Assembly: GCA_037446635.1 (NCBI GenBank)
Contig: JBBIIG010000088.1
Span: forward strand, 1 to 14,105
Length of the DNA stretch: 14,105 bases
Reading direction: 5' to 3'
DNA from: a bacterium
GTDB lineage: Bacteria; Zhuqueibacterota; Zhuqueibacteria; Oceanimicrobiales; Oceanimicrobiaceae
The notes under the pieces were generated by a model. The model was not told where the DNA came from, did no database searches, and worked only from the letters and a program-made list of their open reading frames with translations. Position numbers and translations under genes: made by a program. Each line of letters opens with the position of its first letter. Within the stretch, counting starts at the first letter, position 1. Shown piece after piece: positions 1-14,105 of the stretch.

Positions 1-2
1 TC

Positions 3-242
3 GAGTCGCTGTTTCACAAACCGGAAGAAGCGCTGGAGATTTCAAAAAAATACAAAAGCTGGATTTGCGATGAAAAGCTGATGAAACTCGCGAAGCAAGA
101 GAGCATCTACATGCACTGCTTGCCGGCCGATCGCGGCAACGAAGTTACCGATGCGGTGATTGACGGCCCGCACTCGGTGGTGTATCAGGAAGCGGAAAAT
201 CGGCTGCACACTGCGAAAGCGATCATGGCGCTGACGATGTGA
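3..242 (+). CDS. Aspartate/ornithine carbamoyltransferase-family protein, C-terminal fragment (5' end outside window)
   Basis: Not in the ORF track. Manual translation from base 3 gives [79 protein letters not shown], with the HCLP and EAENRLH motifs of OTCase-like transcarbamylases. TGA at 240-242. Confidence 0.9.
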
Positions 243-246
243 TCGC

Positions 247-306
247 TGATTGATGATTGAAACTTGGTAATTGGAATTAGTCAATAATCAATAGACAATA
301 ATCAAT
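247..306. repeat. Degenerate 7-mer inverted repeat arms (TGATTGA-type, then TCAATAA-type)
   Basis: tgattgatgattga ... tcaataa tcaatag acaataa tcaat; the two arms are approximate reverse complements. Confidence 0.7.
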
Positions 307-1682
307 TGAAAGACAAGTTTGATCTGCTCGTTGTAAACGGTGAAGTCATAACCGAAAGAGATTCCGAAAAGCTGGATGTCGGAATTCGAGACGCAAGAGT
401 TGTGGCCCTCTCTCCGAGCTTGAAGGGGAATTCGGATCGCGTCATCGACGCCGCCGGCAAGCTCGTCTTCCCCGGTTTCATCGATGCCCACACCCACATG
501 GGCATCCCCATCATGAACACTTATTCCAGCGATGATTTTGAATCGGGCTCCGTCGCCGCGGCGTTCGGCAGCGTTACTACGATTATCGATTTCACCGTGC
601 AAGAAAAGGGACAGACGCTGGCGGATTCCGTCGCAGTGCGAATCGATAAGGCCCGAAAAAGTCATGTCGATTACGCCTTGCATGTGAACATCACCGATCA
701 GCCGGAGAAGCGACTGGATGAAATTCCTGCCATCATCGCCGATGGTTTTACCTCGTTCAAAGTTTTTTCGACGTATCGGCAAGCTGGCATGATGATCACC
801 TGGGATGAATTTCGAAAAGTCTTGCAGCAGGTGAATGCACACGGCGGACTGCTTTGTTTGCACGCCGAGGACAATGATTTGGTGGAAACCCTCACTGCTG
901 AACATTTGGCAGCCGGCCGAAAAGCCGCTATCTTTCACGCCCGCAGCCGCACCGCCGAGGCCGAGGCAAAAGCCATCACCCGGGCTGCAGAAATTGCCGG
1001 TGAATTGGGGGCGAGCCTCTACATTGTTCACGTCAGCAGCCAGGCCGGTTTGGAAACGGGTTTGAACGCCCGGGCGCGCGGCGTCAACATTTATCTCGAA
1101 ACCTGTCCGCAATATTTGGTTCTCACCGAAGAATGCTATCGCCGCGAAAATGGCCACCGCTGGATCACCACGCCGCCGCTGCGCACGCAACAAGATTGCG
1201 AAGCATTGTGGCAGGCCCTTGCTGACGATCAAATCGATGTAGTGGCCACCGATCACTGTCCCTTCACCATTCAACAAAAAGACGCCAGCCGCGGGGCCTT
1301 TCATCTCACACCCAACGGTTTGCCGGGCGTGGAGGCGCTCTTTCCCCTGCTTTACACGTATGGTGTCGCACACGGACGAGTGACGCTGCCGCAACTGGTG
1401 CGACTGTTAGCCAAACGGCCTGCCGAAATTTTTGGCCTCTATCCCCAAAAGGGGACGATTCAGATTGGCGCGGACGCCGATTTGGTGATCTGGGATCCGA
1501 ATGCGGAAGAAGCGATTGCCGCCAAACATTTGCACGGAAAAGCCGACTGGTCGCCGTATGAAGGGATGCCTATTGCTGGGAAGTTGGAGTACACAATTCT
1601 GCGCGGCCAGGTTCTGGTGCAGGGCGATGAGTTTGTAGGGCAGGAGGTGAGGGGGGTAGAGCGTAGGGTGGCAAAGCGCTAA
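306..1682 (+). CDS. hydA: Dihydropyrimidinase / D-hydantoinase (cyclic amidohydrolase)
   Basis: 458 aa. Metal-ligand motifs PGFIDAHTH, SFKVF (carboxylated Lys), HAED, VHVSS and ATDHCPF; also PNGLPGVE and GADADLVIWDP. TTG start. Confidence 0.92.
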   Translation: MKDKFDLLVVNGEVITERDSEKLDVGIRDARVVALSPSLKGNSDRVIDAAGKLVFPGFIDAHTHMGIPIMNTYSSDDFESGSVAAAFGSVTTIIDFTVQEKGQTLADSVAVRIDKARKSHVDYALHVNITDQPEKRLDEIPAIIADGFTSFKVFSTYRQAGMMITWDEFRKVLQQVNAHGGLLCLHAEDNDLVETLTAEHLAAGRKAAIFHARSRTAEAEAKAITRAAEIAGELGASLYIVHVSSQAGLETGLNARARGVNIYLETCPQYLVLTEECYRRENGHRWITTPPLRTQQDCEALWQALADDQIDVVATDHCPFTIQQKDASRGAFHLTPNGLPGVEALFPLLYTYGVAHGRVTLPQLVRLLAKRPAEIFGLYPQKGTIQIGADADLVIWDPNAEEAIAAKHLHGKADWSPYEGMPIAGKLEYTILRGQVLVQGDEFVGQEVRGVERRVAKR

Positions 1683-1925
1683 TTGCTACTTTGTAAAGCT
1701 TTTTAGCGCGTCTGGATTAGACTTAAATCCTTGCCAACACCAGCAGCGATGTCAAAGAATACGACAACGAAGGCAAGCCGCACCATCTCATGGGCGACAC
1801 GATTGCCGATAAAAATCTGATTCGGAAATCAAATCTTTTTTAGGTTCTTTGTCATTCAAGTTTTTCAAGCGATAGCTTTGCCAGTTATTTGCAGGAAGTG
1901 AACATTCGGCGGATGTCTCTACCGG

Positions 1926-2082
1926 GGGGCGGCCGTCGCGGGGCCTCAGGAACCCGCGGTTCCAAATTGACCATTCACAATTGGACGTTCACAATTGACA
2001 ATTGTAGTTGAGGGACGCAAATTGTGAATAGTGAATGGTTAATTGTGAATTGAGAATTCTAAGAGGATGAGATGGCCGCCCC
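1926..2082. repeat. Nested inverted-repeat structure between convergent genes (possible terminator/processing stem)
   Basis: Outer stem GGGGCGGCCGTC (1926-1937) / GATGGCCGCCCC (2071-2082). Inner 7-mer arms 1965-2006 (aattgac cattcac aattgga cgttcac aattgac aattgta) and 2020-2058 (aattgtg aatagtg aatggtt aattgtg aattgag aatt). Confidence 0.8.
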
Positions 2083-2098
2083 GTTTAACCGCTGACAC

Positions 2099-3142
2099 CT
2101 ACTTCTCCACCACCAGCATCCCATGACCATCCGGATCCCGCACCAGTAACCCCTTTTTATATGCTAATTTATTCTCTGAAAGCGATACCACTCCGGGCGT
2201 GACAAAATTAGCCTTCCCGCCGCGTAGCCGCTGAAACGCCGCTTCGACGTCGCGGATGATAAGCGCGGTCTGCCAGTGCATGATGTCGTTGGCGCGGATG
2301 TCCACCGGCGTGGGGCGGCCGTCGCGCGGGGTTAGATATTCGAGAAATTCAATACCTGGCCCGCGTTCGGAGCGCAGCCCGGTGATACGCAGCCGAGCGC
2401 CAAACACGTTGTTGAGATGCTCCTGCTCGGTTTCGTAATTCTCGCTTTCGCCAGCTACGCGCAGTCCCAAGAGATCGCGATAAAATTTCAAGCTGCGTTC
2501 GGTATCCGAGACCACGATGGCGGTGTGATCGATTCCCAAAAACAAATTGTCAGTTGGCCTCTGCCAACGCGGATCGCCTTTGCCGGGCGGGAAGTAAATG
2601 ACCTCGAGGTTGTGGTTATCGGGATCGCGAAAATAGAACGCGCGAATGCCGGCCGCGCCCTTGTTCCAATCGGGAATGCGCTGCGGCGCGGTGGAGACGT
2701 GCTGCACTTTGAACTCGCGCAATCGCTGGTAGGCTTTGTCCATGTCGCTCACCACAATCGCGATGTGCTGGAACCAGTGATCGTTGCTTTTGGCGTCCAC
2801 GGGAATGGGGCGACCTTTGGGCGTGAGATACTCGGTCAATTCGATCAGCTCATCGCCGAGCTGCATGCGCACCACGCGCATCCGCAGGCCGAACAGTCCC
2901 TGCAAGTGTTCGTACTCGCTGCCCCAGACTTCAACATCGGAAATTTTTTGGAAGGCCAGCACCTCCGAGTAAAACTCAACGGAGCGATCCATGTCCGACA
3001 CCGTCATGCCGATGGCATCGACGGCTGTAACTGTTCCCTGCTCGTTGAGCTGAGCAACAGCGCTCATCGACGCGAGAATCATCAGCGCCAGCAGCGCCCG
3101 GGAGATGACAATTGCAGCATTTTTGATTTTTTTGCCAAACAT
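2099..3142 (-). CDS. VOC-family (glyoxalase/bleomycin resistance/dioxygenase) two-domain protein with predicted signal peptide
   Basis: Repeated VOC motifs: IGMTVSDMDRSVEFY, HIAIVVSDMD, YFRDPDNHNLE, IDHTAIVVSDTERSLKFY, RDPDGH. Start moved to ATG 3142, which follows a GAGAGGA RBS. Hydrophobic N-terminus ends in AVA-Q. Confidence 0.88.
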   Translation of the reverse strand: MFGKKIKNAAIVISRALLALMILASMSAVAQLNEQGTVTAVDAIGMTVSDMDRSVEFYSEVLAFQKISDVEVWGSEYEHLQGLFGLRMRVVRMQLGDELIELTEYLTPKGRPIPVDAKSNDHWFQHIAIVVSDMDKAYQRLREFKVQHVSTAPQRIPDWNKGAAGIRAFYFRDPDNHNLEVIYFPPGKGDPRWQRPTDNLFLGIDHTAIVVSDTERSLKFYRDLLGLRVAGESENYETEQEHLNNVFGARLRITGLRSERGPGIEFLEYLTPRDGRPTPVDIRANDIMHWQTALIIRDVEAAFQRLRGGKANFVTPGVVSLSENKLAYKKGLLVRDPDGHGMLVVEK

Positions 3143-3168
3143 ATTTCTGTCCTCTCTTATTCGTTCAT

Positions 3169-3207
3169 AATTCACAATTGATAATTGTCAATTGACAATT
3201 GTGAATT
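3169..3207. repeat. Near-palindromic 7-mer array
   Basis: aattcac aattgat aattgtc aattgac aattgtg aatt; the ends AATTCACAATTG / CAATTGTGAATT are perfect reverse complements. Confidence 0.85.
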
Positions 3208-3241
3208 GCTAACCGCTAGGATGTCGAGCTTGAGCTTGACG

Positions 3242-3304
3242 GCCAAACTGAAGTTTGGCACTCCAAAATTGCACGCCCAGCCGCAAAGCGGAGCTTCGCG
3301 TTAC
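3242..3304 (-). repeat. Two tandem REP-like hairpins
   Basis: Minus strand reads GTAA-CGCGAAGC-TCC-GCTTTGCG ... GGAG-T-GCCAAACT-TC-AGTTTGGC, i.e. a tetranucleotide foot plus a short palindrome, the REP architecture. Confidence 0.6.
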
Positions 3305-3318
3305 ACGCTGCGTTGAAA

Positions 3319-3789
3319 TTAATTTTTGTGTTCGGGTTTCTTTTTCAGAAACTTCGGCCAGTTTTCGTCGCCCTTAGCAATGTTGCTGGAAATGTCCGCT
3401 TCCCAAAGTTGCCTGGCTTCCTGGTTGTAGTTCAAATAGAGCTTCCCGTCCACGATTTTCCAAACTTGCGGATCGCCATCAGCAGTATATCCGCGGCTGA
3501 CAGCATAAGCACAATATCCGCCGTATTGCGGCGCGTACTTCTCTGTATTCTTCGTAAACGCGTCGCGATTGGCGGCGCTGCTGAATTGCCAAACGGCGCC
3601 GTTCCACTTGTGCTGAAATTCCGCGCGGCCGGCGACCGGCTTGCCTTCTGTGAAATAAGCCACCGCGTCGTATCCGCGCAGCGCCAGTCCTTTGTCGTTT
3701 TTGTTTACGGGATCAACGCCGCCGCTCAGTGAATTCGAACAGGCGATATAAAACAATAGCAAGAGGAGAAGGCTGATCATTTTTTTCAT
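3319..3789 (-). CDS. YHS-domain-containing lipoprotein (YHS (seleno)protein family, Cys form)
   Basis: Motifs ALRGYDAVAYF, WQFSSAANRDAF, YAPQYGGYCAYAVS, IVDGKLYLNY. Start moved to ATG 3789 (RBS GAGGA). Signal MKKMISLLLLLLFYIA-C has a lipobox-like Cys. Confidence 0.88.
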   Translation of the reverse strand: MKKMISLLLLLLFYIACSNSLSGGVDPVNKNDKGLALRGYDAVAYFTEGKPVAGRAEFQHKWNGAVWQFSSAANRDAFTKNTEKYAPQYGGYCAYAVSRGYTADGDPQVWKIVDGKLYLNYNQEARQLWEADISSNIAKGDENWPKFLKKKPEHKN

Positions 3790-3804
3790 GTTTGTTCCTC
3801 GTGA

Positions 3805-3949
3805 TTTGTTTGTTGTCCGTGGTCCGTTGTTTGTTGTAATGGTCAATGGTCAATTGTGAATTGTGAATTGCTAATTGCTAATTGCTAATTGCCAACTGCT
3901 TACTGCTTACTGCTTACTGCTTACTGACAACGGACAACTGACAACTGAC
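3805..3949. repeat. Composite morphing 7-mer tandem array
   Basis: GTTGTCC-type units 3812-3837, then 16 in-phase units 3838-3949: aatggtc x2, aattgtg x2, aattgct x3, aattgcc, aactgct, tactgct x3, tactgac, aacggac, aactgac x2. Confidence 0.95.
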
Positions 3950-3952
3950 CAA

Positions 3953-5521
3953 TCACCCCATTCTCTGCAGAAGATGCTCTCCCACCCGCAGCGCATTCGC
4001 CATGATCGTCAACGCCGGATTCACCGCCGCGCTCGATACAAAGAAACTGCCATCGACGACGTACAGATTGTCCACGTCGTGGGCTTTGCAGTTGGCATCC
4101 AGCGCCGAAGTCTTGGGATCGTTGCCGAAGCGAATGGTGCCATTCTGGTGCGCCACCCCGGCCAGCGGAATACGCTGTCCGACGAACAGACTGCGAGCAA
4201 ACAGACCCACGTGGCAATCGTGTCCGTGCATCGGACATTTGGTTTGCTGCTTCAGCAAATCTTTTAATTTGGCGATCAGCCGCTTGTGGCCTTCTTCGTT
4301 GTTTGGCTTATAAGTGAGGACGATGTTGCCCTCGCGATCAAGAGAAACCCGATTGTTGGGATCGGGCAAATCCTCCGACGTCAGCCAGAAATCCAACGAG
4401 TGTTTCGCCATCAATTCCAACGTAAAACCTGGAGCGATCGCCGGCGCGCCGGCTTTCAACGTTTCACCGTCGAGTTTGCCGACAAAAGAAATGTGGCCCA
4501 TGGGATAATCCCATTCTTTGGACGCGAAATAAAAATCATTCACCCCCAACGTTTTTTGAAAGATGGTCGGGTTGGGACATTTGGAGATGGCCATCATCAC
4601 CGAGTTGACGTGGCCCATATAGTGGCGGCCCACCACGCCCGAACGATTGGCCAGGCCATTGGGGTGTTTGTCGTTGGCCGAGCGCAGCAGCAGCGCTGCG
4701 GAGTTGATGGCGCCGCACGACACCACTACCACATCGGCGGACAGTTCCTCGGTGGAACCGTTGCGGCTCACCACTACTTTTTTCACCGTTCGTCCCGAGG
4801 CGTCGGTGAGCAGCTTTTCCACTTTCGCGTTCGTCATCAAAGTGATGTTGGAATGTTTGAGCGCTGGATCCACAGCGCACACTTGCGCGTCGGATTTGGC
4901 GTTGACCAAACAGGGGAAGCCGTCGCAGGTCTCGCAGCGAATGCAGGCGCTGGCGCGGCGATTTTTTTCGTTGAGCATGACGCCGATTGGTACGTGAAAC
5001 GGCTTGAGTCCCAGCGCTGCAAAATCATCGCTGAGCTGCTGAATGCGCGGCTCGTGGCTCACCGCCGGATAGGGATAGGGCGCGGTGGCCGGCGGCTCGG
5101 TCGGGTCTTCGCCGCGCTGGCCGTGCACGTGGTAAAGGTTCTCCGCTTCGGTGTAGTAGGATTCCATCTCGTCGTAACTGACTGGCCACGCCGGCGAAAC
5201 CCCGCCGTGGTGGCGGATTTCGCCAAAATCTTCTTTGCGCAAACGAAAGAGCGCGGCACCGTAAAATTTGGTGTTGCCGCCAACGTAGTAGTTGGTGTGC
5301 GGATGCAGCTCCTTGCCGTCTTTGTCGCGCCATTTTTCTTGGGTTTGATACTTGCCCTCCACGTTGACGGCGCGCGGATCCCAGTTGGCTTTCTCGCGCG
5401 GCACATAATCGCCGCGTTCCAGCAGCAAAATCTTTTTACCCGACGGCGCGAGTTTGTAAGCGAGTGTGCCGCCGCCGGCGCCTGTGCCGATGATTATAAT
5501 ATCGTAGTGGTTGGTTGCCAT
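3953..5521 (-). CDS. GMC-family FAD oxidoreductase
   Basis: 522 aa. N-terminal GTGAGGG FAD motif, VGGNTKFYGA, Cys cluster CIRCETCDGFPC, C-terminal AHQNGT and NPALTIMANALR. RBS AAGGAG. No signal peptide. Confidence 0.93.
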   Translation of the reverse strand: MATNHYDIIIIGTGAGGGTLAYKLAPSGKKILLLERGDYVPREKANWDPRAVNVEGKYQTQEKWRDKDGKELHPHTNYYVGGNTKFYGAALFRLRKEDFGEIRHHGGVSPAWPVSYDEMESYYTEAENLYHVHGQRGEDPTEPPATAPYPYPAVSHEPRIQQLSDDFAALGLKPFHVPIGVMLNEKNRRASACIRCETCDGFPCLVNAKSDAQVCAVDPALKHSNITLMTNAKVEKLLTDASGRTVKKVVVSRNGSTEELSADVVVVSCGAINSAALLLRSANDKHPNGLANRSGVVGRHYMGHVNSVMMAISKCPNPTIFQKTLGVNDFYFASKEWDYPMGHISFVGKLDGETLKAGAPAIAPGFTLELMAKHSLDFWLTSEDLPDPNNRVSLDREGNIVLTYKPNNEEGHKRLIAKLKDLLKQQTKCPMHGHDCHVGLFARSLFVGQRIPLAGVAHQNGTIRFGNDPKTSALDANCKAHDVDNLYVVDGSFFVSSAAVNPALTIMANALRVGEHLLQRMG

Positions 5522-5536
5522 AACTTCTCCTTAAAT

Positions 5537-5618
5537 TTTGTTTGTTGTCCGTCGTCAGTTGTCAGTTGAAATTGACCATTAACAATTCACCGTTCACCAT
5601 TCACGATTGGCTATTGGA
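5537..5618. repeat. Composite 7-mer array overlapping the aquaporin stop codon
   Basis: gttgtcc gtcgtca gttgtca gttg, then aattgac cattaac aattcac cgttcac cattcac gattggc tattgga. Confidence 0.88.
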
Positions 5619-6416
5619 AACCGACGATTTATTTGCACTCATATACCCACACCTGAAAATGCATCTCTTATCGTTATGATGATGCAGCTTGGCGCAAATG
5701 ACGTTTTGAATGCCGCGCTGGCGAACGTAAAGTTCTGCGGCCAACAGCATCCCGATGGTCGGCGCGGTGAAATAAATCCACAACGTATTCCACAGGTGCG
5801 GCGGCACCGCGGAGGCAAAGGTGCGCGCCGGATTCATGCTCATGCCGGAGAACGGCGCTTCGAAGGCGATGTAGGTTGCCACCAAACCGCCGGCGAAAAC
5901 CCCGGTCAGGCGCGCCAAATTTTGGTTATTGCTAACGTGCAAAATCGTGGTCATCAAAATAAAAGTGATAATAACCTCGGCGATGAAGGCGATGGCAATT
6001 CCGTTTTCGCCTGGCAGGGTGGCCACGTAATTGACGCGGGGATCGGCGATCCAATTTCGCAGCAGTGCCGCACAGAGAAGCAATCCAAAAAGTCCACCCG
6101 CGAATTGCGCCAGCATATAGAAAATAGCGTCCCAGCGCTGAATCTTGCCTAAGCGGAAGAAGGTCAGCGTCACCGCCGGATTGAAGTGCGCGCCGGATCG
6201 CTTTCCAATTGGCGAGTAAATGATGGCGATGGCGGTAAGTCCCATTGCCAAGCCCATGATCACTCGGCGCAAAAAAGCATCCGGCAGCGCCTGCCGAATC
6301 GGCGAGGCGGGATGTTCCAGAATCACTCCGAACATGCCCGCGGAGATCATGAATAATCCCAGCTCCGCAGCTTCCATCAGGTATTCGGGCCAGTGGTCTC
6401 GCAATGCTTTCTTCAT
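5601..6416 (-). CDS. MIP/aquaporin family channel with Cys/His-rich C-terminal tail
   Basis: 271 aa. SGAHFNPAVT and GMSMNPART NPA boxes, about six hydrophobic segments, tail CAKLHHHNDKRCIFRCG. Confidence 0.93.
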   Translation of the reverse strand: MKKALRDHWPEYLMEAAELGLFMISAGMFGVILEHPASPIRQALPDAFLRRVIMGLAMGLTAIAIIYSPIGKRSGAHFNPAVTLTFFRLGKIQRWDAIFYMLAQFAGGLFGLLLCAALLRNWIADPRVNYVATLPGENGIAIAFIAEVIITFILMTTILHVSNNQNLARLTGVFAGGLVATYIAFEAPFSGMSMNPARTFASAVPPHLWNTLWIYFTAPTIGMLLAAELYVRQRGIQNVICAKLHHHNDKRCIFRCGYMSANKSSVSNSQS

Positions 6417-6433
6417 TTAATGAACCTATCGCT

Positions 6434-6519
6434 TGTGGATTGATGGATTACTGGATCAATGGATTAATGCAAAAGCAGGTACATTGATCCATTGATCCAA
6501 TACTCCATTACTTCCCACA
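6434..6519. repeat. 8-mer inverted repeat arms (hairpin)
   Basis: ggattgat ggattact ggatcaat ggattaat (6437-6468) / attgatcc attgatcc aatactcc attacttc (6483-6514), closed by tgtgg/ccaca. Confidence 0.9.
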
Positions 6520-6520
6520 G

Positions 6521-7861
6521 TTAAACCATCTCAGCTACCTTCTTCACTGTAGTCTGTTGATAATCATCTTCCCCGTGCGACACGCTCGGCGCGCGGAAAG
6601 TTTGAAACTGCACAAGATCTTTCGAGAAGATCAGATCAAGCGTCCAATCTATCGCGACGCGGATTTTCTTTTCTAATCGCGGCAGCTTGCTCAGATAGAT
6701 CGAGCGCCACAGCCACCAGGCGATGAACCCGGAAAAATTGAATCCGAGAATGTTGGCCACGCCCGTGCGCCGGCCAATGGCCGCGAGTTGGCCGATGGTT
6801 TTAAAGACGAACGACTTTTTCCGCCGGCCGCGAATGGCAGCGGCGATGTTATTCGCCAAAACTTTGCCCTGCCGTAACGCGTGTTGCGCGGTGGGTGGAT
6901 AATATTTTCCGGGATTCTGTTTGTCGGGAATCGCGGCGCAATCGCCAACTGCCCACACGCCCGGCCATTCCGGAACTTCCATGTTTTCATCAACCAGAAT
7001 TCGGCCCTTCTCCCGTTTGCAGGGCAATCCCTGCAAAAGCGGATTCGGCGAGGTGCCGGCGGTCCACACCAGCGTGTTGGCTTTGATTTCGGAGCCGTCG
7101 CTGAGCACAATTCCGTCGTCTGAAATTCCAGCGACTCGGGTGTTGACGCGAATCTCGACCTTGCGCTCGGCTAATTTTCGCTGCGCGTACGCGCCCAATC
7201 TTTCGCCCAACTCCGGCAAAATGAATTTGCCCGGATGCACCAACACCACGCGGATAAGATCTTCGCTGAGATGCGGATAAAACTCCACGGCCTCGCGCAG
7301 AAAGTCGTTGACGGCGGCAATGGTCTCGACGCCAGCGAATCCGCCGCCGGCCACCACCACGCTCAGAAAATGCTCGCGCCCGATGGTGCATTCGAAGTCG
7401 GCCTGTTCCAAAAGATCGATCAGACGATTGCGCAGCGTGATGGCATCGCCCAGCGATTTCATGGTCAGCGCGCGCTGCTGCAAACCGGGGATGTTGAAGA
7501 AATTGGTGATCGACCCCAAGGAAATCACGAGGTGATCGTAAGTCAGCTCATGATGGTGATGATCGTCGCCGTGCGAAACCACCACCGTGCGACCCGGCAA
7601 ATCGATCGACTCCACGTCGCCTTCGAAAAAACGCACGCGCTTCAGCAGCTTGCGAATGGGGTTGACGATGTGCGTCATGTCGAGATCGCTGGCCGCCACT
7701 TCGTGCAGCATCGGCGTAAATAGGATAAAATTGTCCCGATTCACCAGAGTAACTTCGATGCCGGGATCGCGGGCGAGAGTTTTCTCCAACTGCAGCGCCG
7801 TATAAAGTCCGGCAAAGCCGCCGCCGAGGATCACAATATTCTTCTGTTTTTCGCTATTCAT
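6521..7861 (-). CDS. ndh: Type II NAD(P)H:quinone oxidoreductase-like flavoprotein (NDH-2)
   Basis: 446 aa. Two GGGFAG Rossmann motifs, FTPMLHEVA, WAVGDCA, quinone-site-like PTAQHALRQG, C-terminal amphipathic GFIAWWLWRSIYL. Confidence 0.88.
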   Translation of the reverse strand: MNSEKQKNIVILGGGFAGLYTALQLEKTLARDPGIEVTLVNRDNFILFTPMLHEVAASDLDMTHIVNPIRKLLKRVRFFEGDVESIDLPGRTVVVSHGDDHHHHELTYDHLVISLGSITNFFNIPGLQQRALTMKSLGDAITLRNRLIDLLEQADFECTIGREHFLSVVVAGGGFAGVETIAAVNDFLREAVEFYPHLSEDLIRVVLVHPGKFILPELGERLGAYAQRKLAERKVEIRVNTRVAGISDDGIVLSDGSEIKANTLVWTAGTSPNPLLQGLPCKREKGRILVDENMEVPEWPGVWAVGDCAAIPDKQNPGKYYPPTAQHALRQGKVLANNIAAAIRGRRKKSFVFKTIGQLAAIGRRTGVANILGFNFSGFIAWWLWRSIYLSKLPRLEKKIRVAIDWTLDLIFSKDLVQFQTFRAPSVSHGEDDYQQTTVKKVAEMV

Positions 7862-7899
7862 AGAAATTGCTCCAATACAAATATGCGTTGAGGGACACT

Positions 7900-8043
7900 G
7901 AAGTATTGGATTGATGGATTAATGGAGCAATGTCAAACGAGAGAAGAATTTTAAATTTTGATTTCTGCAATTTGCATTTTGCATTTTCATTCACAACTGC
8001 CTGTCCAATCCATTAATCCATTAATCCATCACTCCATTACTCC
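7900..8043. repeat. 8-mer inverted arms enclosing a 7-mer array
   Basis: gaagtatt ggattgat ggattaat ggagcaat (7900-7931); loop 7-mers aatttta aattttg atttctg caatttg cattttg cattttc (7947-7988); tccaatcc attaatcc x2 atcactcc attactcc (8004-8043). Confidence 0.9.
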
Positions 8044-8068
8044 AACAACTCTGCCAACCACCAACAGC

Positions 8069-8773
8069 CTACTGAACGTCTACTCGATTCCACAACGTGA
8101 TCTCCGTCTTCCAGCCTTCCTTCTGTCGCTTTTCGAAGGAGGAGCGGAGATGCGGCGTCAGCTTGTGCGTTTCGAGATCCGCCGGGCTGCGCCAGATTTC
8201 AAAACGAAGAAATTCATTCTTTTTGGTTTGCGACTGGTAGAGATCATATTGGATGCATCCCGGCTCGGCCAAAGTCGGCGCGGTGAGTGAAAGCAAATGA
8301 CTCTTCAGATCATCCTCTTTTCCTTCCAGCCCGTGAATGAAGGTGAAAGCCGTCAGTGTGCCTTCATTGATTGGATCGGCGGCCGCTTTGCCATCGCTGG
8401 ATTTCGCCGCTGGCGTTTTCATCTCCACGATAATGCCGCGGGCATCAGTATCGCCGATGTTCAGCGGCGAGTGGGTGACCGCCTCGCCGTACAAAACGTC
8501 GCCGGCCCGGGTTTCGCGGATGACGGTTTTGCCATCCGGGAAAGTGAATTTAATTTTTAACGGAGTTAGCACGTAAGTGACCGCGGCTGGATGCGAATGA
8601 AAATCCTCGGTGTCGCCTTTGCGCAGCGTAAACTCCATCACTCGCACGCGATCGTTTTCTAACAGCACTTTGTAGTTATTTGGATAGAGCGGTACTGGAT
8701 CCTGAGCCATGGCGCGCGCCGCCAAACTCATTATGGTAATAAAGCTCGCTATCAAAATTTTATTGATGAACAT
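8069..8773 (-). CDS. Exported cupin-like domain + antibiotic biosynthesis monooxygenase (ABM/putative quinol monooxygenase) fusion
   Basis: Signal ending AMA-Q. Cupin part YKVLLENDRVRV..FHSHP..THSPLNIG. ABM part EPGCIQYDLYQS..FEIWRSPADLETHKLTPH. RBS AGGAGG. Confidence 0.8.
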   Translation of the reverse strand: MFINKILIASFITIMSLAARAMAQDPVPLYPNNYKVLLENDRVRVMEFTLRKGDTEDFHSHPAAVTYVLTPLKIKFTFPDGKTVIRETRAGDVLYGEAVTHSPLNIGDTDARGIIVEMKTPAAKSSDGKAAADPINEGTLTAFTFIHGLEGKEDDLKSHLLSLTAPTLAEPGCIQYDLYQSQTKKNEFLRFEIWRSPADLETHKLTPHLRSSFEKRQKEGWKTEITLWNRVDVQ

Positions 8774-8799
8774 AACGCCTCCTTCTTTTTGTTGGCTCC

Positions 8800-8839
8800 A
8801 TTAAACCATTAATCCATCACTCCATCACTCCATTACTCC
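8800..8839. repeat. Single-arm 8-mer array
   Basis: attaaacc attaatcc atcactcc atcactcc attactcc; no complementary arm in the same spacer. Confidence 0.88.
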
Positions 8840-8845
8840 ACGTTT

Positions 8846-9880
8846 TTAAAACCCCGTTCCTTTGGTATTCAACCGAACTCGATAAATGGCCGTGTTCGAA
8901 GTAATAAAGAGCGTCGAGCCGTCTTCGCCAAAGGCGCAGTTGCCGGTGGCCACGCCAAAATCGATCATGCCAAGCAGGGCGCCATCCGGCGCGATGAAAT
9001 AAATTCCCCCCGGTCCGCCGCCGATGACGTTGCCGTGCTGATCCACTTTCAAGCCGTCGGGGACGCCTGGTTTGTCTTTGTTCAGTTCCGATCCATCGAG
9101 CAAAACGCGGCCACCAGTGATCGCGCCGTCGTCTTTCACATCGAAGGCCATCCAGCGGCGCAGCCCGGAATCCGAGAGGTACAAAGTTTTCTCATCCGGC
9201 GAGAAGGCGATGCCGTTGGGCGCCTGCAAATCTTTGGTGAGCAGGGTGAGCTTGCCCTCCTTCGAAAGTCGATAGACGCCCTGAAAATCCAACTCTTTGT
9301 TTGGATCATCAAAAACGCCCGGCAGCCCAAACGGGGGATCGGTGAAATACATGTCGCCGTTGGATTTGAAAATCACATCGTTGGGACTGTTGATGCGCTT
9401 GCCTTGATAGCGATCCACTAGCGTGGTTTTCTTGCCATCGGCTTCGAGGCGAGCGATGCGGCGGTCGCCGTGTTCACAGAGCACCAGCCGTCCCCTGGTG
9501 TCGAAAGTCAGACCATTGGAGCCGGGTTCTCTGCCGGTAAACGGCTCTTTGCCGGTGTAGCCGCTGGGTTTCAAAAACAGGCTCGTGCCTTCTCCTTCTT
9601 TCCATTTCATCACCGCGTTGTTGGGGATGTCTGAGAACAGCAGATATTTTCCCGCGCGATTCCACACCGGGCCCTCGACCCAGGAAAATCCGTCCGCCAA
9701 CTTTTCCACGACGGCGTCTTTTGGGACGAGTTCGTCGAAGCGCGGATCGAGCCGCACGATTTTGGGGTACTCATTCGTTGCGGCGGCGGCCGGCGGATGG
9801 TGCGAAGCGATGTCGGTCAACAACTGATACAAGGCCAGCAGTGCCATGACGAAGTAAACGGCTGGAAAAAGTTTTTTCAT
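8846..9880 (-). CDS. SMP-30/gluconolactonase/LRE family protein, exported or membrane-anchored
   Basis: 344 aa. WVEGPVW, LLFSDIP, GSNGLT, NSPND, YFTDPPFG, PNGIAFSPD, PDGLKVD; hydrophobic N-terminus. Confidence 0.92.
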   Translation of the reverse strand: MKKLFPAVYFVMALLALYQLLTDIASHHPPAAAATNEYPKIVRLDPRFDELVPKDAVVEKLADGFSWVEGPVWNRAGKYLLFSDIPNNAVMKWKEGEGTSLFLKPSGYTGKEPFTGREPGSNGLTFDTRGRLVLCEHGDRRIARLEADGKKTTLVDRYQGKRINSPNDVIFKSNGDMYFTDPPFGLPGVFDDPNKELDFQGVYRLSKEGKLTLLTKDLQAPNGIAFSPDEKTLYLSDSGLRRWMAFDVKDDGAITGGRVLLDGSELNKDKPGVPDGLKVDQHGNVIGGGPGGIYFIAPDGALLGMIDFGVATGNCAFGEDGSTLFITSNTAIYRVRLNTKGTGF

Positions 9881-9908
9881 CGCTAAGCCTCCAGTGAATT
9901 TTTAAAAA

Positions 9909-10070
9909 TGTCATTTCGAGCGAAGCGAGAAACTTGGCGGAGAATCGACCCAGCAAATGCGCTCGCAACCGATGTGGTCTGAGGACGAATTTCTAACCGC
10001 CAGATTTCTCACCTCGACAATCGGCAGAGCCGATCCGCTTTGCGGAAAAACGTCGCGGTTCGAGATGACA
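9909..10070. mobile_element. MITE-like / palindromic repeat element, 162 bp, non-coding
   Basis: Terminal inverted repeat TGTCATTTCGA / TCGAGATGACA (10 of 11 match). Internal GCGAAGCGAGAAA pairs in part with AGATTTCTC. Resembles the widespread GTCAT..CGAGCGAAGCGAG..ATGAC palindromic repeats. Confidence 0.6.
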
Positions 10071-10085
10071 ATTTATTCTATCAAT

Positions 10086-11738
10086 CTACTTCTTTGTCAA
10101 CTCATCCGTCTTCACCACCGGCCGCACGCCGGCAACTCTCAGCGGCATGCGATAGAGTCCGCTGCGGGCGCAGAGATAGAGCGTCTTGCCGTCGTCGCCC
10201 CACGCCAGGTTGTGAATGTGCTTCGGCGCGATGATCGTCCCCAAGTGTTTACCCGCCGGTGAAATCACCCACAATCCGCCGGGTCCGGAAACATAAAGAT
10301 TGCCCTGCTCATCTACTTTGATGCCATCGAGCGCGTCTTCTCCCGGCGCGCTGGTCATGTCGAAAAAGATTTGCCCGTTGGAGAGCGTGCCGTCTTTCTT
10401 CGCTTCGTAGCGCATCACTACCTTTTTGTTTTCGTCCCAGTTGCCGACGTAGAGATATTTTTCATCCGGCGAAAACGCGATGCCGTTGGGCCCGCTCAAT
10501 TCTTTGCTGAGGAGTTGGAGCTTGCCTTTGTAGATGGAGTAGATGCCGCTGAACGGCAGCTCTTTGCGCGGGTCGTCGAAAAACTTGGGCAGACCGAACG
10601 GCGGATCGGTGAAGTAAAGCGTGCCGTCCGATCGATAAATAAGATCGTTGGGACTGTTGAGCCGTTTGCCCTGATAACGATCCGCCAACACCGTCACCTT
10701 GCCGTCCTTTTCCAGCCGGCTGACGCGGTGGTTGCCGTGCTCGCAAATGGTGAGCCGTCGCTGCGAATCGAGCGTGAGTCCGTTCGAGCCCGGCTGGCCG
10801 TACTCGGAGACATCGCCGCCGGCGTAGCCGCTGGGGGTGCGAAAAATTTCGAGCTTGCCAGTGTTGTTGCCGGCCGGCGTGAATTTGTAAATGATGTTGC
10901 TGTTGGGATCGCTGAATAACAAATAGCCGCCGTCCGCAATCCAGATGGGACCTTCGGTGAATTTAAATCCTTCCGCAAGCTTGAAGATTTTCGGATTCGG
11001 CCCGACGATGGCGTCGATGCCCGGATCGTTGCGGATGATCTGCACGTTCACTTCACTCGGAGTCAGTGCAATCGGCGCGGTGCTGCCCGGATAAAAATTC
11101 AGCCGGGCGAATCGCATCCAGATGAAATTCGTCGGGGGATTCGAGATCGGACCGTTGATGCCAAAAATTGCCAGTTGGATCTTTTGGCCGGGCTGAACGT
11201 TGCGCCCAACGATCAACCGGTTCGGCGCGTTCCAGCCGCTGATCACCGAGCCGCCCATTTGTCCCAGCGCGCGCGACAGTTCGCCGTCCACCCAGATTTC
11301 GGCGTAGTCATCCAACGCCGTCTCAAACACCACGGTTGAGCCGCTCGGATCAAACTCGCCGATGCGCTCCGGAATCGTGACGTTGATGCGGTACCAGTTA
11401 AAACAGATTCTCCCCGTGGAGCGCCGCGTGGCGAGCGTGGTGGCGTCGATGGCTTGCCACTGCGCGTCGTCAAAATCCGCGCCGCCGGCTTTGGGAGTGT
11501 AATCGTACGTCTTCACCGGCGCGCCGGTGGGCTGATTGTCCAGCCCCGGCCCGGTGAAATCCACTTCGATGATTTTGGTGTCGCTGTAGCGCCACTGCCC
11601 GTTGACCATCTGCACGCCGTCAGCAGTAGCGAGATCGATCACGGCTTGCGGTTGGCCGGCGGGAATATCCGCCGTGGTTTGCGCCTGGGCCGCGGCGGCC
11701 AGCAATAGTGCTATCCCAAAGAGTAGCTTTAATTTCAT
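10086..11738 (-). CDS. Exported SMP-30/gluconolactonase with N-terminal galactose-binding-like (GH2 sugar-binding-type) domain
   Basis: 550 aa. Signal ending AQA. N-domain DFDDAQW..WYRINVTIP..DDYAEIWVDG. C-domain FTEGPIW, GSNGLT, NSPND, PNGIAFSPD, DGIKVD. RBS GGAGG. Confidence 0.9.
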   Translation of the reverse strand: MKLKLLFGIALLLAAAAQAQTTADIPAGQPQAVIDLATADGVQMVNGQWRYSDTKIIEVDFTGPGLDNQPTGAPVKTYDYTPKAGGADFDDAQWQAIDATTLATRRSTGRICFNWYRINVTIPERIGEFDPSGSTVVFETALDDYAEIWVDGELSRALGQMGGSVISGWNAPNRLIVGRNVQPGQKIQLAIFGINGPISNPPTNFIWMRFARLNFYPGSTAPIALTPSEVNVQIIRNDPGIDAIVGPNPKIFKLAEGFKFTEGPIWIADGGYLLFSDPNSNIIYKFTPAGNNTGKLEIFRTPSGYAGGDVSEYGQPGSNGLTLDSQRRLTICEHGNHRVSRLEKDGKVTVLADRYQGKRLNSPNDLIYRSDGTLYFTDPPFGLPKFFDDPRKELPFSGIYSIYKGKLQLLSKELSGPNGIAFSPDEKYLYVGNWDENKKVVMRYEAKKDGTLSNGQIFFDMTSAPGEDALDGIKVDEQGNLYVSGPGGLWVISPAGKHLGTIIAPKHIHNLAWGDDGKTLYLCARSGLYRMPLRVAGVRPVVKTDELTKK

Positions 11739-11759
11739 GATTTGTCCTCCATTCGTGGC

Positions 11760-11869
11760 GGAGTAATGGAGTGATGGAGTAATGGAGTAATGGATTTATG
11801 TTCTTGAGACGGCGCCAATCCATTCATCCAAAAACACATCACTCCAAAACTCCAGTACTCCACCACTCC
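11760..11869. repeat. 8-mer inverted repeat arms
   Basis: ggagtaat ggagtgat ggagtaat ggagtaat ggatttat (11760-11799) / gccaatcc attcatcc aaaaacac atcactcc aaaactcc agtactcc accactcc (11814-11869). Confidence 0.92.
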
Positions 11870-11880
11870 AATAGTAATAG

Positions 11881-12354
11881 TTATTGAATCGCTGCAGCCG
11901 TGACCGCGGCCCCGGCTTTGGCGATGTCTTCGTCTTCCTGCGGTGTGTTGCCGCTGACGCCAATCGCGCCGATCACTTTGCGGTCAACAATGATGGGGAC
12001 GCCGCCCTGCAGCGGGGTCGCGCCGGGCAAAGCGAGTGCAGCCACCCGGCCCTCGCGTACTTGATCCTCGAAGACCTTGCTGGGCCGGCGAAAAATGGCC
12101 GCGGTGCGCGCTTTGCCAATGCCAACCTCGACGCTGGCGACCTGGGTATCGTTGAGCCGCTCGAGAAGAATGAGGTGACCACCGTCATCCACGATGGCGA
12201 TAACCACGGTCGCGCCCCGCTTGATGACCTCCGCCTCAGCCGCCGCGGCGATCTTTTTCGCGGCTTCCAGCGTCAGCACCTGTTTCACCGGCAACTGCGC
12301 TAAAGCCGGCGCGGCCAGCAAAAGCGCGATTCCAAAAGCTTGTCGTAATTTCAT
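11881..12354 (-). CDS. GlcG/HbpS-family heme-binding protein, exported
   Basis: IAIVDDGG..LERL, GKARTAA, GGVPI..GAIGVSG..DEDIA. Start moved to ATG 12354 (RBS GGAG); signal ending ALA-Q. Confidence 0.9.
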   Translation of the reverse strand: MKLRQAFGIALLLAAPALAQLPVKQVLTLEAAKKIAAAAEAEVIKRGATVVIAIVDDGGHLILLERLNDTQVASVEVGIGKARTAAIFRRPSKVFEDQVREGRVAALALPGATPLQGGVPIIVDRKVIGAIGVSGNTPQEDEDIAKAGAAVTAAAIQ

Positions 12355-12374
12355 GACTTGTTCTCCAACGTTGT

Positions 12375-12497
12375 GGAGTAATGAAGTTTTGGAGTAATGG
12401 ATCACGTTTGCCGTCTGCCTTTTGCCGCTTCACATTAATCCAGCAATCCATTAATCCATCACTCCAAAACTCCATCACTCCAGAACTCCAGAACTCC
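12375..12497. repeat. 8-mer inverted arms enclosing a short 7-mer array
   Basis: ggagtaat gaagtttt ggagtaat ggatca; loop cgtttgc cgtctgc cttttgc; eight NNNA(A/C)TCC units 12434-12497. Confidence 0.92.
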
Positions 12498-12506
12498 ATC
12501 CCGCCT

Positions 12507-13385
12507 TCACCCGATAACTTTGACCACGTAGTAGTCGATCTTCCCGTTGACTTCTTTGAACCAGTGCGGCACGCCCTGCGGCACGATGATGACGTCGCCT
12601 TTGGTGATCTTGCGGGTCTCACCGCCTTCAATTGATTTGCCGCGGATTTCGCCCGGGGCGGTGGTTTGGCCTTCAACCACGGCGCCGCCGGTTACGAAGG
12701 TGGCCGAGCCATCCAGCACGTAAATGACGTCGGTTTCCCAGGCGTGGACTTCCGCCTGTCCGGCGGCGTTGCGGTGGCTGGCGTGCACTTTGTAATCGCC
12801 GACTTCAATCAGCGGCTGGCCTTTCACAAAGGCCGCGGCGACTTTGTCGTTTTTGAGATAAAAAACATCATCGTTGGCCGCTCCATTCGTGGCGGCTGCA
12901 AATGATTTCGCGGCCTCGGCGCCGGCGAGGGCCAGCTCCTCATCCTGCTGGGCGCTGGCGGCGCCGCTGACGCCAATTCCCCCCACCACCTGATCGCCAA
13001 CGACGATCGGCACGCCGCCCTGCAGCGGAGTGAAGAATTCATCCGGCAGCGCGATCATCGGCGTGCGGCCGTCGCGAATAATTTTTTCGAAGACCGCCGT
13101 GGGACGCTGAAACAACACCGCCGTCCGCGCCTTGCCAATGGAGATGTTGGCGCCGGCGGCAAACGTGCCGTCTAACCGCTCGAGGGCAATCAAATTTCCG
13201 CCGTTATCCACCACCGCGATGACGCCGCCGGGCGCATTGAGCCGGCGCGCCTCGGCCACGGCCGCGGCAATCACTTTCTTCGCGCCATCGAGCGTCAGCG
13301 ATTTTTTCTCGGTAATTTGTCCCGCTGCTGCCATTCCAAACGTCAGTAGCAGCAGCGTAATCAGTATATTTCGTATTGACTTCAT
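12507..13385 (-). CDS. Exported GlcG/HbpS heme-binding domain + C-terminal cupin fusion
   Basis: 292 aa. GlcG motifs IAVVDNGG, GKARTA, GGVPI, GVSG. Cupin motifs EVHAWETDVIYVLDG and KGDVIIVPQGVPHWF. RBS AGGAGG. Confidence 0.9.
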   Translation of the reverse strand: MKSIRNILITLLLLTFGMAAAGQITEKKSLTLDGAKKVIAAAVAEARRLNAPGGVIAVVDNGGNLIALERLDGTFAAGANISIGKARTAVLFQRPTAVFEKIIRDGRTPMIALPDEFFTPLQGGVPIVVGDQVVGGIGVSGAASAQQDEELALAGAEAAKSFAAATNGAANDDVFYLKNDKVAAAFVKGQPLIEVGDYKVHASHRNAAGQAEVHAWETDVIYVLDGSATFVTGGAVVEGQTTAPGEIRGKSIEGGETRKITKGDVIIVPQGVPHWFKEVNGKIDYYVVKVIG

Positions 13386-13405
13386 TTTGCTCCTCCTTGC
13401 ATTTT

Positions 13406-13486
13406 GGAGTATTGGATTGCTGGATTATTGGATCAATGGGAAACAAGCTTTGCCAAAAATCCATTAATCCAGCAATCCATTAATCC
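13406..13486. repeat. 8-mer inverted repeat arms
   Basis: ggagtatt ggattgct ggattatt ggatcaat (13406-13437) / aaaaatcc attaatcc agcaatcc attaatcc (13455-13486). Confidence 0.9.
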
Positions 13487-13491
13487 AACTG

Positions 13492-13528
13492 AAAATCGCA
13501 CCGGCCCGGCTGTTTGGCCGGGCCGGTG
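13492..13528 (-). terminator. GC-rich hairpin after the DM13-like gene (weak intrinsic terminator or mRNA-stabilising stem)
   Basis: Perfect 12-bp stem CACCGGCCCGGC (13499-13510) / GCCGGGCCGGTG (13517-13528) with a 6-nt loop, followed on the minus strand by CGATTTT (short U tract). Confidence 0.6.
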
Positions 13529-13538
13529 GTTCAAAAAG

Positions 13539-13958
13539 TTATTTGCTGGTCAACTGCACGGTGCTTTCAAACTCGGCCTCTCCCAACAACGCTTCCGCCC
13601 ACGAGCAGTAGATCTGCACTTTGGCGATATCTTTGATGTAAGAGGGAACGGTGATGGTCTTGTTGAATTTCTCTTCTTTGCCCTCCATGTTCTTTTTGAT
13701 CATACAGCGGTTGAGCAAATAGACGTTACCTTTGGAGTCCACAATTTGAATATGCGGATCCGGGGTTTCCGGAGTTTTGAAATCATCCGAAAACGTCAGC
13801 ATGTCTTTGTCGCCGTCTTTCCAGTGGGTCACCGTGCCGGTGTTGGCCTTCGCGCCCTGGAACGGCTTGCTGGTGTGTTTATCGCCGGCAAAGCCGCTGA
13901 CCGCAAAAAAGGCAAGCAGTGAAAGGATCAGCGTGACAGATTTGATTAGGGATTTCAT
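13539..13958 (-). CDS. Exported hypothetical protein, DM13-like
   Basis: 139 aa. Signal ending GFA; RBS GAGGAG. FKTPETPDPH and VQIYCSWAEALLGEAEF resemble the DM13 pattern GPD(L)H..V.IWC..F...FG.A. The CDS is solid; the family call is tentative. Confidence 0.7.
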   Translation of the reverse strand: MKSLIKSVTLILSLLAFFAVSGFAGDKHTSKPFQGAKANTGTVTHWKDGDKDMLTFSDDFKTPETPDPHIQIVDSKGNVYLLNRCMIKKNMEGKEEKFNKTITVPSYIKDIAKVQIYCSWAEALLGEAEFESTVQLTSK

Positions 13959-14035
13959 AGTAAATGCTCCTCTCTTTGTTTGATATTAGAGTTTGTTTAA
14001 TAACTGAATTGTTTCTGTTGACTCACTGTTTTGTT

Positions 14036-14105
14036 GGAGTGCTGGAGTATTGGATTAATGGATTAATGGATTAATGGATTAATGGATTAATGGATTAATG
14101 GATTA
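14036..14105. repeat. Tandem 8-mer (GGATTAAT)n running off the window end
   Basis: ggagtgct ggagtatt, then six perfect GGATTAAT units (14052-14099) and a partial GGATTA. Confidence 0.97.

Follow-up and report, generated by a model that had tools for sequence, protein, structure and literature searches.

Introduction

Why should nearly every gap between genes in one stretch of bacterial DNA hold short periodic repeats that can pair with one another? The stretch studied here, called the window throughout, is 14,105 nt long and makes up the entire contig JBBIIG010000088.1 (C88) of assembly GCA_037446635.1, a 4.64 Mb genome (52.5% G+C, 97% complete) from the Oceanimicrobiaceae of the Zhuqueibacterota. 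An original prediction, made from the letters alone, had noticed arrays of 7- and 8-nt units, mostly arranged as an arm followed by a complementary anti-arm, and proposed either an RNA-level grammar or the footprint of a process that places repeats at gene boundaries. We find that all 13 spacers of the window are occupied by repeat elements; wherever the partner gene could be identified, the spacer holds a copy without it. On balance, we judge it probable that these spacers are gene-less, non-autonomous copies of a mobile cassette consisting of an arm, a gene for a PF05635 four-helix-bundle protein, and an anti-arm.

Four-Helix-Bundle Genes between Complementary Arms

The genome holds five TIGR02436/PF05635 genes, of the intervening sequence (IVS)/Avd-like type. 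By eye, each of the five is bracketed by an upstream array and its reverse complement, every gene with its own unit; an automatic arm caller confirmed both arms for two of them. The link between such arrays and four-helix-bundle genes that the original prediction mentioned is thus supported in this genome. Two of the five genes carry units of the window: C44:15233-15550 is flanked by the 8-mer unit of the element at 6436-6507, and C44:13657-13977 by the unit of 243-306. The five genes are low in G+C (36-43%, against a coding-sequence (CDS) median of 54%), and each points the same way as its two neighbors; all five filled copies and all window elements lie between protein-coding genes. At C44:12800-16400 (L212:1-3601), consecutive junctions of one operon are filled by two different four-helix-bundle cassettes, and the open reading frame (ORF) of the 8-mer gene on this contig ends inside its own anti-arm.

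The first junction of the window (243-305) was readable in 14 of the 19 relatives that have the downstream gene, and it is seen compact, empty, and filled across them. A four-helix-bundle gene with GAATTAC-type arms fills it in three of the 14 (G001, G006, and G013). In another three the junction measures 0-8 nt (one estimate is unreliable), and in the remaining relatives it spans 24-405 nt and, by eye, sometimes contains repeats of other types. Homology with G001, a member of the same genus, extends up to the stop codon and picks up again from the start codon; the filled copy in G001 is broken by an internal stop. Together with the five armed genes, these filled junctions support the footprint half of the original prediction.

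PF05635 genes occur in 40 of the 41 genomes searched. We compared the five own genes with 89 relative loci, 29 of them returned automatically and 60 hand-picked among 150 listed of 204 matches; hand-picking favored genomes with many or no 8-mer pattern matches. Among 97 ORF matches, 90 have flanks of at least 120 nt, and arrays were called on both sides in 45 of these. The upstream unit is the reverse complement of the downstream unit (at most one mismatch) in 28 of the 90. Of 644 small genes used as controls, 3 pass the same criterion, and one of these is a GxxExxY gene, a family treated below. Duplex energy of the flanks was also tried as a classifier and rejected as noisy, with 18 of 89 four-helix-bundle cases, 9 of 27 GxxExxY cases, and 13 of 150 controls passing the cut.

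Period 7 prevails in four-helix-bundle arms (100 of 118). A tree of 86 proteins, built on 103 columns and weak at many forks, shows the units following well-supported protein clades across families: TGGA 8-mers form clades of 3 rows (97/91) and 4 rows (99/98), and the GTGAGAC (6 rows, 100/100), AGGTATA (4 rows, 98/100), and GATTGAT (5 rows, 100/100) units each mark a clade. An 8-mer also occurs within the AGGTATA clade, which makes more than one origin of period 8 probable. Used as a query, the 8-mer protein matched in 8 of 21 genomes that have the 8-mer pattern and in none of 20 without it, and its close relatives are found in at least three different gene contexts. Cassette proteins also matched 30 plasmid records, mostly cyanobacterial, and both heptamer arms are present in two of the four cyanobacterial plasmid copies viewed; two queries returned no match in viral contigs or phages. 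On Nostoc and Aulosira plasmids (L381, L384), four-helix-bundle genes are bracketed by GGAGTCA/TGACTCC heptamers. Heptamer repeats of cyanobacteria go by the name STRR.

Genome-Wide Distribution, Order, and Folding

The genome was scanned over 2755 spacers of at least 20 nt, using gene calls made in this analysis and dinucleotide shuffles as the control. Intergenic tracts numbered 180 for period 7 (15.7 in shuffles), 219 for period 8 (13.0), and 57 for period 9 (14.7), an excess of about 11-17-fold for periods 7 and 8. Per 100 kb, period-7 and period-8 tracts reach 25.9 and 31.5 in intergenic DNA vs 0.9 and 0.4 in CDS, making them ~30x and ~80x denser between genes. The 8-mer arm pattern matched 254 times outside CDS interiors and once inside, in line with the earlier statement that arms are essentially absent from coding regions.

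Arm order in the 8-mer family (TGGA core) is fixed genome-wide rather than random: the G-rich arm precedes the C-rich arm in 71 of 71 two-arm spacers under a strict pattern and in 94 of 94 under a looser one. Divergent spacers seldom carry the pattern (2 of 244); it occurs in 146 of 2883 spacers between co-directional genes and in 9 of 258 convergent ones. The elements share a layout and lie in transcribed spacers, after stop codons. In both arms, GAGT units on the outside give way to GATY units on the inside (p about 0.001).

All five complete 8-mer spacers of the window fold strongly, with z from -3.5 to -9.3 against dinucleotide shuffles on the mRNA strand, and strong folding is seen on both strands. 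The expectation that most spacers fold holds for these five and fails for two of the five 7-mer spacers (z -1.1 and +1.3). Neighboring elements within 6 kb belong to the same family in 47 of 122 cases, compared with 28 +/- 4 after permutation, and families are mixed in 27 of 286 spacers, often nested. Proximity of similar loops was not significant (5 of 149, p 0.08).

Turnover at Persistent Sites

Homologues of the window's minus-strand gene cluster show how these junctions look in other hosts. Among 53 same-pair junctions from 46 loci, two hold arrays, and most are compact. Arms occur in 3 of 219 junctions from 80 metagenome loci, all three in L277, the closest relative (78% nucleotide identity), which keeps the 8-mer arms with different loops. 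Two L277 spacers at other junctions are 75-76% like the window spacer 7899-8044.

The same-genus comparison of this genome (G000) with G001 covered 80 of ~680 G001 contigs (17 chosen for matches) and 126 orthologous junctions. At 8 of the 12 junctions armed in both genomes the unit family differs: the site persists and its occupant turns over. Among 55 loops there are 149 similar pairs: judged against the transcript, 77 share their sense, 67 are opposed, and 5 are tied; these pairs are non-independent, and one hairpin module dominates them. Filled, empty, and compact states, clade-specific units, turnover, nesting, and local clustering are all directly seen in these data.

Repeat Elements and Genes of the Window

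Tandem Repeats Finder (TRF) places period-7 arrays at 281-306, 1965-2058, 3169-3208, 3812-3949, and 5544-5608, and period-8 arrays at 6436-6499, 7907-8044, 8798-8840, 11760-11871, 12433-12500, 13404-13487, and 14043-14105. Twelve of the 13 spacers hold such arrays and 9881-10085 holds none, as first described. The elements are as follows.

243-306, plus strand: empty 7-mer cassette with a GATTGAT-type arm, a short loop, and a CAATAAT-type anti-arm (TRF; relatives' junctions)
1965-2058, unstranded: inverted 7-mer pair in reverse order, ATTCACA-type then GTGAATT-type, in the convergent spacer (TRF, folding)
3169-3208, unstranded: loop-less palindromic 7-mer pair in reverse order (TRF, folding)
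3213-3312, unstranded: short, dispersed REP-like hairpin modules with 12 genome matches (genome sequence search)
3812-3949, minus strand: long compound 7-mer array whose units grade into one another (TRF, folding)
5544-5608, minus strand: 7-mer arm and anti-arm, the arm overlapping the 3' end of the aquaporin gene (TRF)
6436-6507, unstranded: empty 8-mer cassette, arms 6436-6467 and 6484-6507 (arm pattern; folding z -5.9)
7899-8044, unstranded: 8-mer cassette, arms 7899-7930 and 8005-8044, whose loop contains a nested 7-mer module (arm pattern)
8793-8840, minus strand: single 8-mer arm, G-rich on the mRNA (arm pattern, folding)
9908-10072, unstranded: non-periodic long palindrome, empty copy of a GIY-YIG element (genome sequence search)
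11759-11870, unstranded: empty 8-mer cassette, arms 11759-11798 and 11839-11870 (arm pattern; folding z -9.3)
12374-12498, unstranded: 8-mer cassette, arms 12374-12405 and 12435-12498, with a nested short 7-mer run at 12405-12427 (TRF, pattern)
13405-13487, unstranded: empty 8-mer cassette, arms 13405-13436 and 13456-13487 (arm pattern, folding)
14035-14105, plus strand: 8-mer arm of at least 8 units, interrupted by the contig end (TRF, arm pattern)

The broad layout of period 7 on the left and period 8 on the right stands, except that period-7 tracts also lie inside 8-mer loops (7955-7991 and 12405-12427). Likewise, most spacers run from arm to anti-arm, but the order is reversed at 1965-2058 and 3169-3208, and 8793-8840 has a single arm. 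Arms contain 3 to 12 units. The cassette at 243-306 lies between the carbamoyltransferase and amidohydrolase genes, its anti-arm abutting a TTG start; across 281-308 the anti-arm stands directly at this start with no Shine-Dalgarno (SD) sequence, as it does in G001. On the mRNA, the units of 3812-3949 read GTCAGTT, GCAGTAA, AATTAGC, AATTCAC, and AACGGAC. The module nested at 7930-8002 has 19 genome matches, and the junction of 11759-11870 is compact in most distant homologues. Within 3213-3312 there is a weak 18-nt match to a Y1 transposase gene flank. The non-periodic part of the convergent spacer (1690-1960) has just one other genome match. A G+C-rich hairpin lies at ~13499-13528 behind the last gene, with the cassette 13405-13487 downstream of it on the mRNA; by eye, a hairpin is also present at this junction in several distant arm-less homologues.

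The 13 genes form two convergent units, 1-1682 on the plus strand and 2099-13958 on the minus strand, and not the one long polycistron first supposed:

1-1682, plus strand: 3' end of the carbamoyltransferase gene (to 242) and amidohydrolase gene (306-1682), a pair kept in 14 relatives
2099-13958, minus strand: host gene cluster of 11 genes (Pfam)

The cluster encodes a glyoxalase, a YHS protein, a GMC oxidoreductase, an aquaporin, NDH-2, and an ABM-domain protein; the other genes are two gluconolactonase-like, two HbpS-like, and one without a Pfam match. Its homologues come from many phyla with a patchy spread, and the cluster recurs, its genes rearranged, in Acidobacteriota, Thermodesulfobacteriota, Planctomycetota, Bacteroidota, and others. 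Of 40 relatives, only 1 has a full-length match to the HbpS-cupin gene. By Pfam, which left one gene without a match, none of the 13 window genes encodes a nuclease, transposase, reverse transcriptase (RT), or PF05635 protein; this agrees with the earlier remark that no protein in the window explains the arms and that no four-helix-bundle gene is present.

Parallel Cassette Families

Arm families of a parallel kind accompany GxxExxY and GIY-YIG genes, and the remaining window spacer is filled by one of them. By eye, all four GxxExxY genes of the genome have their own inverted arms:

C25:56152-56487, GxxExxY gene
C12:15332-15679, GxxExxY gene
C31:8905-9255, GxxExxY gene
C92:6861-7193, GxxExxY gene

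In 29 relative loci, the 45 GxxExxY arms called have period 9 (27), 10 (13), or 8 (5), and never 7; GxxExxY genes in loci L182-L211 likewise have inverted arms of period 8-10. The C92 copy is absent from the orthologous G001 junction (653 vs 56 nt). The palindrome 9908-10072, found 29 times in the genome, is similar to the sequence on either side of the small GIY-YIG gene C4:20504-20722 (E 5e-6); the spacer 9881-10085, singled out as the exception, does lack a period-7/8 array but is filled by an empty copy of this palindrome. A double-hairpin module of ~45 nt has 49 matches (C2 near 6928, C20:44462-49101, and others) and lies inside 13 8-mer loops in either orientation; no partner gene for it was found.

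A Putative Repeat-Binding Pentamer

The model of the four-helix-bundle protein (pLDDT 97.7) matches pentameric XCC0516 (TM 0.92) and BT_0352, followed by Avd. Against Avd (4DWL), it gives Z 14.5, a root-mean-square deviation of 1.6 over 101 aligned residues, and TM 0.72 at 11-12% identity, the next unrelated fold scoring Z 12.1. From the model's likeness to 2GSC and 2RLD, it follows that the cassette protein is predicted to be a pentamer. Avd is described as gripping an RNA stem-loop with all five protomers (10.1101/2023.10.23.563531).

By analogy to Avd, the pentamer may bind its own repeat units, and such cognate binding would account for the match between units and protein clades and for the constant TGGA core amid drift of the rest. 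Cassettes would spread into gene junctions by copying of their DNA, frequently landing in or next to an existing hairpin and close to a sister copy; this would explain why elements nest, why one family forms local runs, and why occupants are replaced. The gene would often be lost afterwards, and slippage would alter the unit number. By analogy to 23S rRNA intervening sequences, the arms may form long mRNA stems that RNase III cuts, which would make the inserts tolerable; the genome encodes rnc. Strand transfer would perhaps fall, at a guess, to a host recombination or repair function.

Weighing the Alternatives

Several observations weigh against the cassette reading. No transposase, nuclease, or RT belonging to the cassette was found in a search of the genome; the sole RVT_1 match adjoins cas1 on another contig. 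Three of four Y1 transposase matches have their own, different flanking repeats, and none of the four Y1 genes is flanked by the 7/8-mer arms of the window (both by eye). No target-site duplication of the kind that classical MITEs have was seen in 93 elements when shared words in the 15-nt flanks were scored (3.30 vs 3.21 +/- 0.14), a test in which element ends are ill-defined and copies old. A called arm is missing on one or both sides in 45 of the 90 gene matches. Of the 21 pattern-bearing genomes, 13 lack a match to the 8-mer protein, including G002, G021, and G032 (98-99% complete, with 34, 22, and 19 pattern matches) and G001 (74% complete, 124 pattern matches), and in every cross-genome count kin are non-independent. 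To the eye, the three filled copies of the first junction look like members of a single subfamily, and a single old insertion followed by recurrent loss may account for them. Reverse arm order occurs in five GTGAATT-type spacers of the genome and in two window spacers, and one nested module is orientation-biased (12 vs 3). Among the 126 orthologous junctions, arms are present in both genomes at 12, in G000 only at 4, in G001 only at 10, and in neither at 100; for contigs taken by number alone the counts are 4, 3, 7, and 80 (p 0.003). Occupancy is therefore conserved above chance, which also fits selection for a hairpin at these sites. Finally, G.U exceeds A.C mismatches on the transcript strand (65 vs 35). 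Deamination of C to T on the non-template strand would also yield such an excess. At C27:438-4738, cas1 and a small ORF that resembles cas2 by eye follow immediately after an ORF for a reverse transcriptase of 985 aa.

The alternative that survives best is selected RNA punctuation, in which the arms would be processing, stability, or translation signals read by RNase III and perhaps also by the four-helix-bundle protein as a regulator that brackets its own gene too. We regard it as unlikely, and the RNA-level grammar of the original prediction is not supported as the origin of the arms: the same operon is mostly arm-less in distant hosts (2/53 and 3/219 junctions), the unit family differs at 8/12 shared junctions, and loop modules lie either way round (77 vs 67). 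No covariation was detected unit by unit between partner arms, which are no better matched than non-partners (complementarity 0.834 vs 0.834; 0.485 vs 0.488 at variable positions), and the core has no wobble bias (14/923 vs 13/749). Weak correlations between partner arms do exist for the position-6 C fraction and for unit number (p 0.04 each, uncorrected). SD frequency is unchanged in the presence of arms (66/151 vs 722/1681). An enrichment of stop codons in upstream units (28/61 vs 16/66) was set aside, as base composition explains it (shuffles 0.53 and 0.31). Genes are indeed bracketed by complementary arms, but pairing energy across a gene is about the same as within a spacer and neighboring spacers hold the same family, so the bracketing appears to be a by-product of that sharing. 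Rfam returned six hairpin matches in the window at E up to 1, all below the gathering score, with Gut-1 not among them and no rRNA match. A putative effect of the arms on RNA processing is nonetheless plausible. Among listed sequencing runs, no RNA run contains this genome, and three DNA runs contain it in small shares.

It is very unlikely, in our view, that a template-directed writer made the periodic arms de novo at gene boundaries, the four-helix-bundle protein acting with a host or borrowed polymerase or RT. The protein has an Avd-like fold, and Avd partners an RT; arms are family-typical instead of mirror copies and grade from GAGT to GATY on both sides, loops are heterogeneous and lie either way round, and the 8-mer family is the outer layer in three-part nested cases. 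Set against this, no RT is linked to the cassettes, the inner family seems the newcomer in two G001 junctions (by eye), and similar composite elements recur at different junctions, as copying predicts. Highly improbable, and already largely refuted, is neutral slippage of microsatellites together with decayed remains of old, vertically inherited genes and no active spread: unit numbers that vary from 3 to 12, broken four-helix-bundle genes, and one junction that is possibly an old insertion plus loss would suit it, but slippage gives no fixed inverted order (94/94), no loops common to dispersed sites, no family-tied period (7 in 100/118 four-helix-bundle arms, 8-10 in 45/45 GxxExxY arms), and no arms where the same junction is compact in other hosts.

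Mobile cassettes and their gene-less copies thus remain our preferred account. A wider extension, which we offer only tentatively and think rather doubtful, is a class of transposase-less mobile elements in which small, RNA-binding four-helix-bundle pentamers each recognize their own 7/8-mer array and the cassettes home to operon junctions, nest, and replace one another alongside GxxExxY/GIY-YIG rivals. Heptamer repeats and ORF-bearing 23S IVSs would then be the debris and one landing site of a single system, with a readable protein-to-repeat code.

If true, the cassette reading connects an orphan family of proteins with bacterial repeat DNA that has lacked an explanation. The cited literature treats the heptamer excess, the origin of 23S IVSs, and what the PF05635 proteins do, common as they are, as open questions, and this genome links the three. 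Its five proteins with distinct cognate units make the protein-repeat link testable. If the cassettes move without a transposase of their own, the mechanism is new, and a programmable repeat-binding ring, if real, would serve as a tool.

Comparison with Known Systems

The punctuation pattern itself is already known, from inverted heptamer pairs in Xanthomonas, which also lack a gene and are placed in the same way (PMC4692102), and from heptamer runs ahead of start codons in Beggiatoaceae (PMC4679880). A protein-plus-arms unit outside rRNA was not found in searches of open-access text.

The GGGAATC heptamers of Xanthomonas and Nostoc resemble the present arrays in being intergenic: they have about four units, each genome holds 70-75 pairs in inverted arrangement, and they lie shortly after stop codons and are rare between divergent genes (PMC4692102). 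They were studied as G-quadruplexes, and the accessible text describes no partner gene, filled form, or turnover (PMC4692102); the units here, in contrast, lack G3 tracts. The TAACTGA repeats of Beggiatoaceae and cyanobacterial heptamers are like 281-306 in forming intergenic runs within operons that end at start codons without an SD sequence (PMC4679880). Unlike the present elements, the TAACTGA repeats are described as a single unit repeated directly, for which a role in translation was proposed, and the text makes no mention of 'four helix' (PMC4679880).

The diversity-generating retroelement (DGR) protein Avd (4DWL, 8UB7) shares the fold and acts as a pentamer on an RNA stem-loop (10.1101/2023.10.23.563531), whereas no RT, template repeat, or variable repeat lies next to the cassettes. 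REPIN-RAYT systems also place inverted doublets that form hairpins in extragenic space, with many empty copies, a single-copy cognate gene flanked by the same repeat, and one repeat family per gene family (PMC3116915). Here, however, the arms are tandem 7/8-mer arrays instead of short palindromes, and the cognate gene encodes a helical bundle without known catalytic activity instead of a Y1/HUH transposase.

The closest likeness in build is to the ORF-bearing 23S rRNA IVS, which has the same S23p/PF05635 protein family as the filled cassettes and terminal complementary arms (PMC4990558). In the Coxiella IVS (23S helix 45), tandem heptamers stand just upstream of the ORF, and the sequence is an RNase III substrate, cleaved at the first heptamer (PMC4990558). 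The present elements differ in lying between protein-coding genes and not in an rRNA helix, in their gene-less copies, which number well over 100, and in their many unit families, including the 8-mer. Since they are not in rRNA and have no cognate Y1 transposase, they stand outside the IVS and REPIN classes, as they do outside that of the DGRs: the element is IVS-like in build and REPIN-like in population structure.

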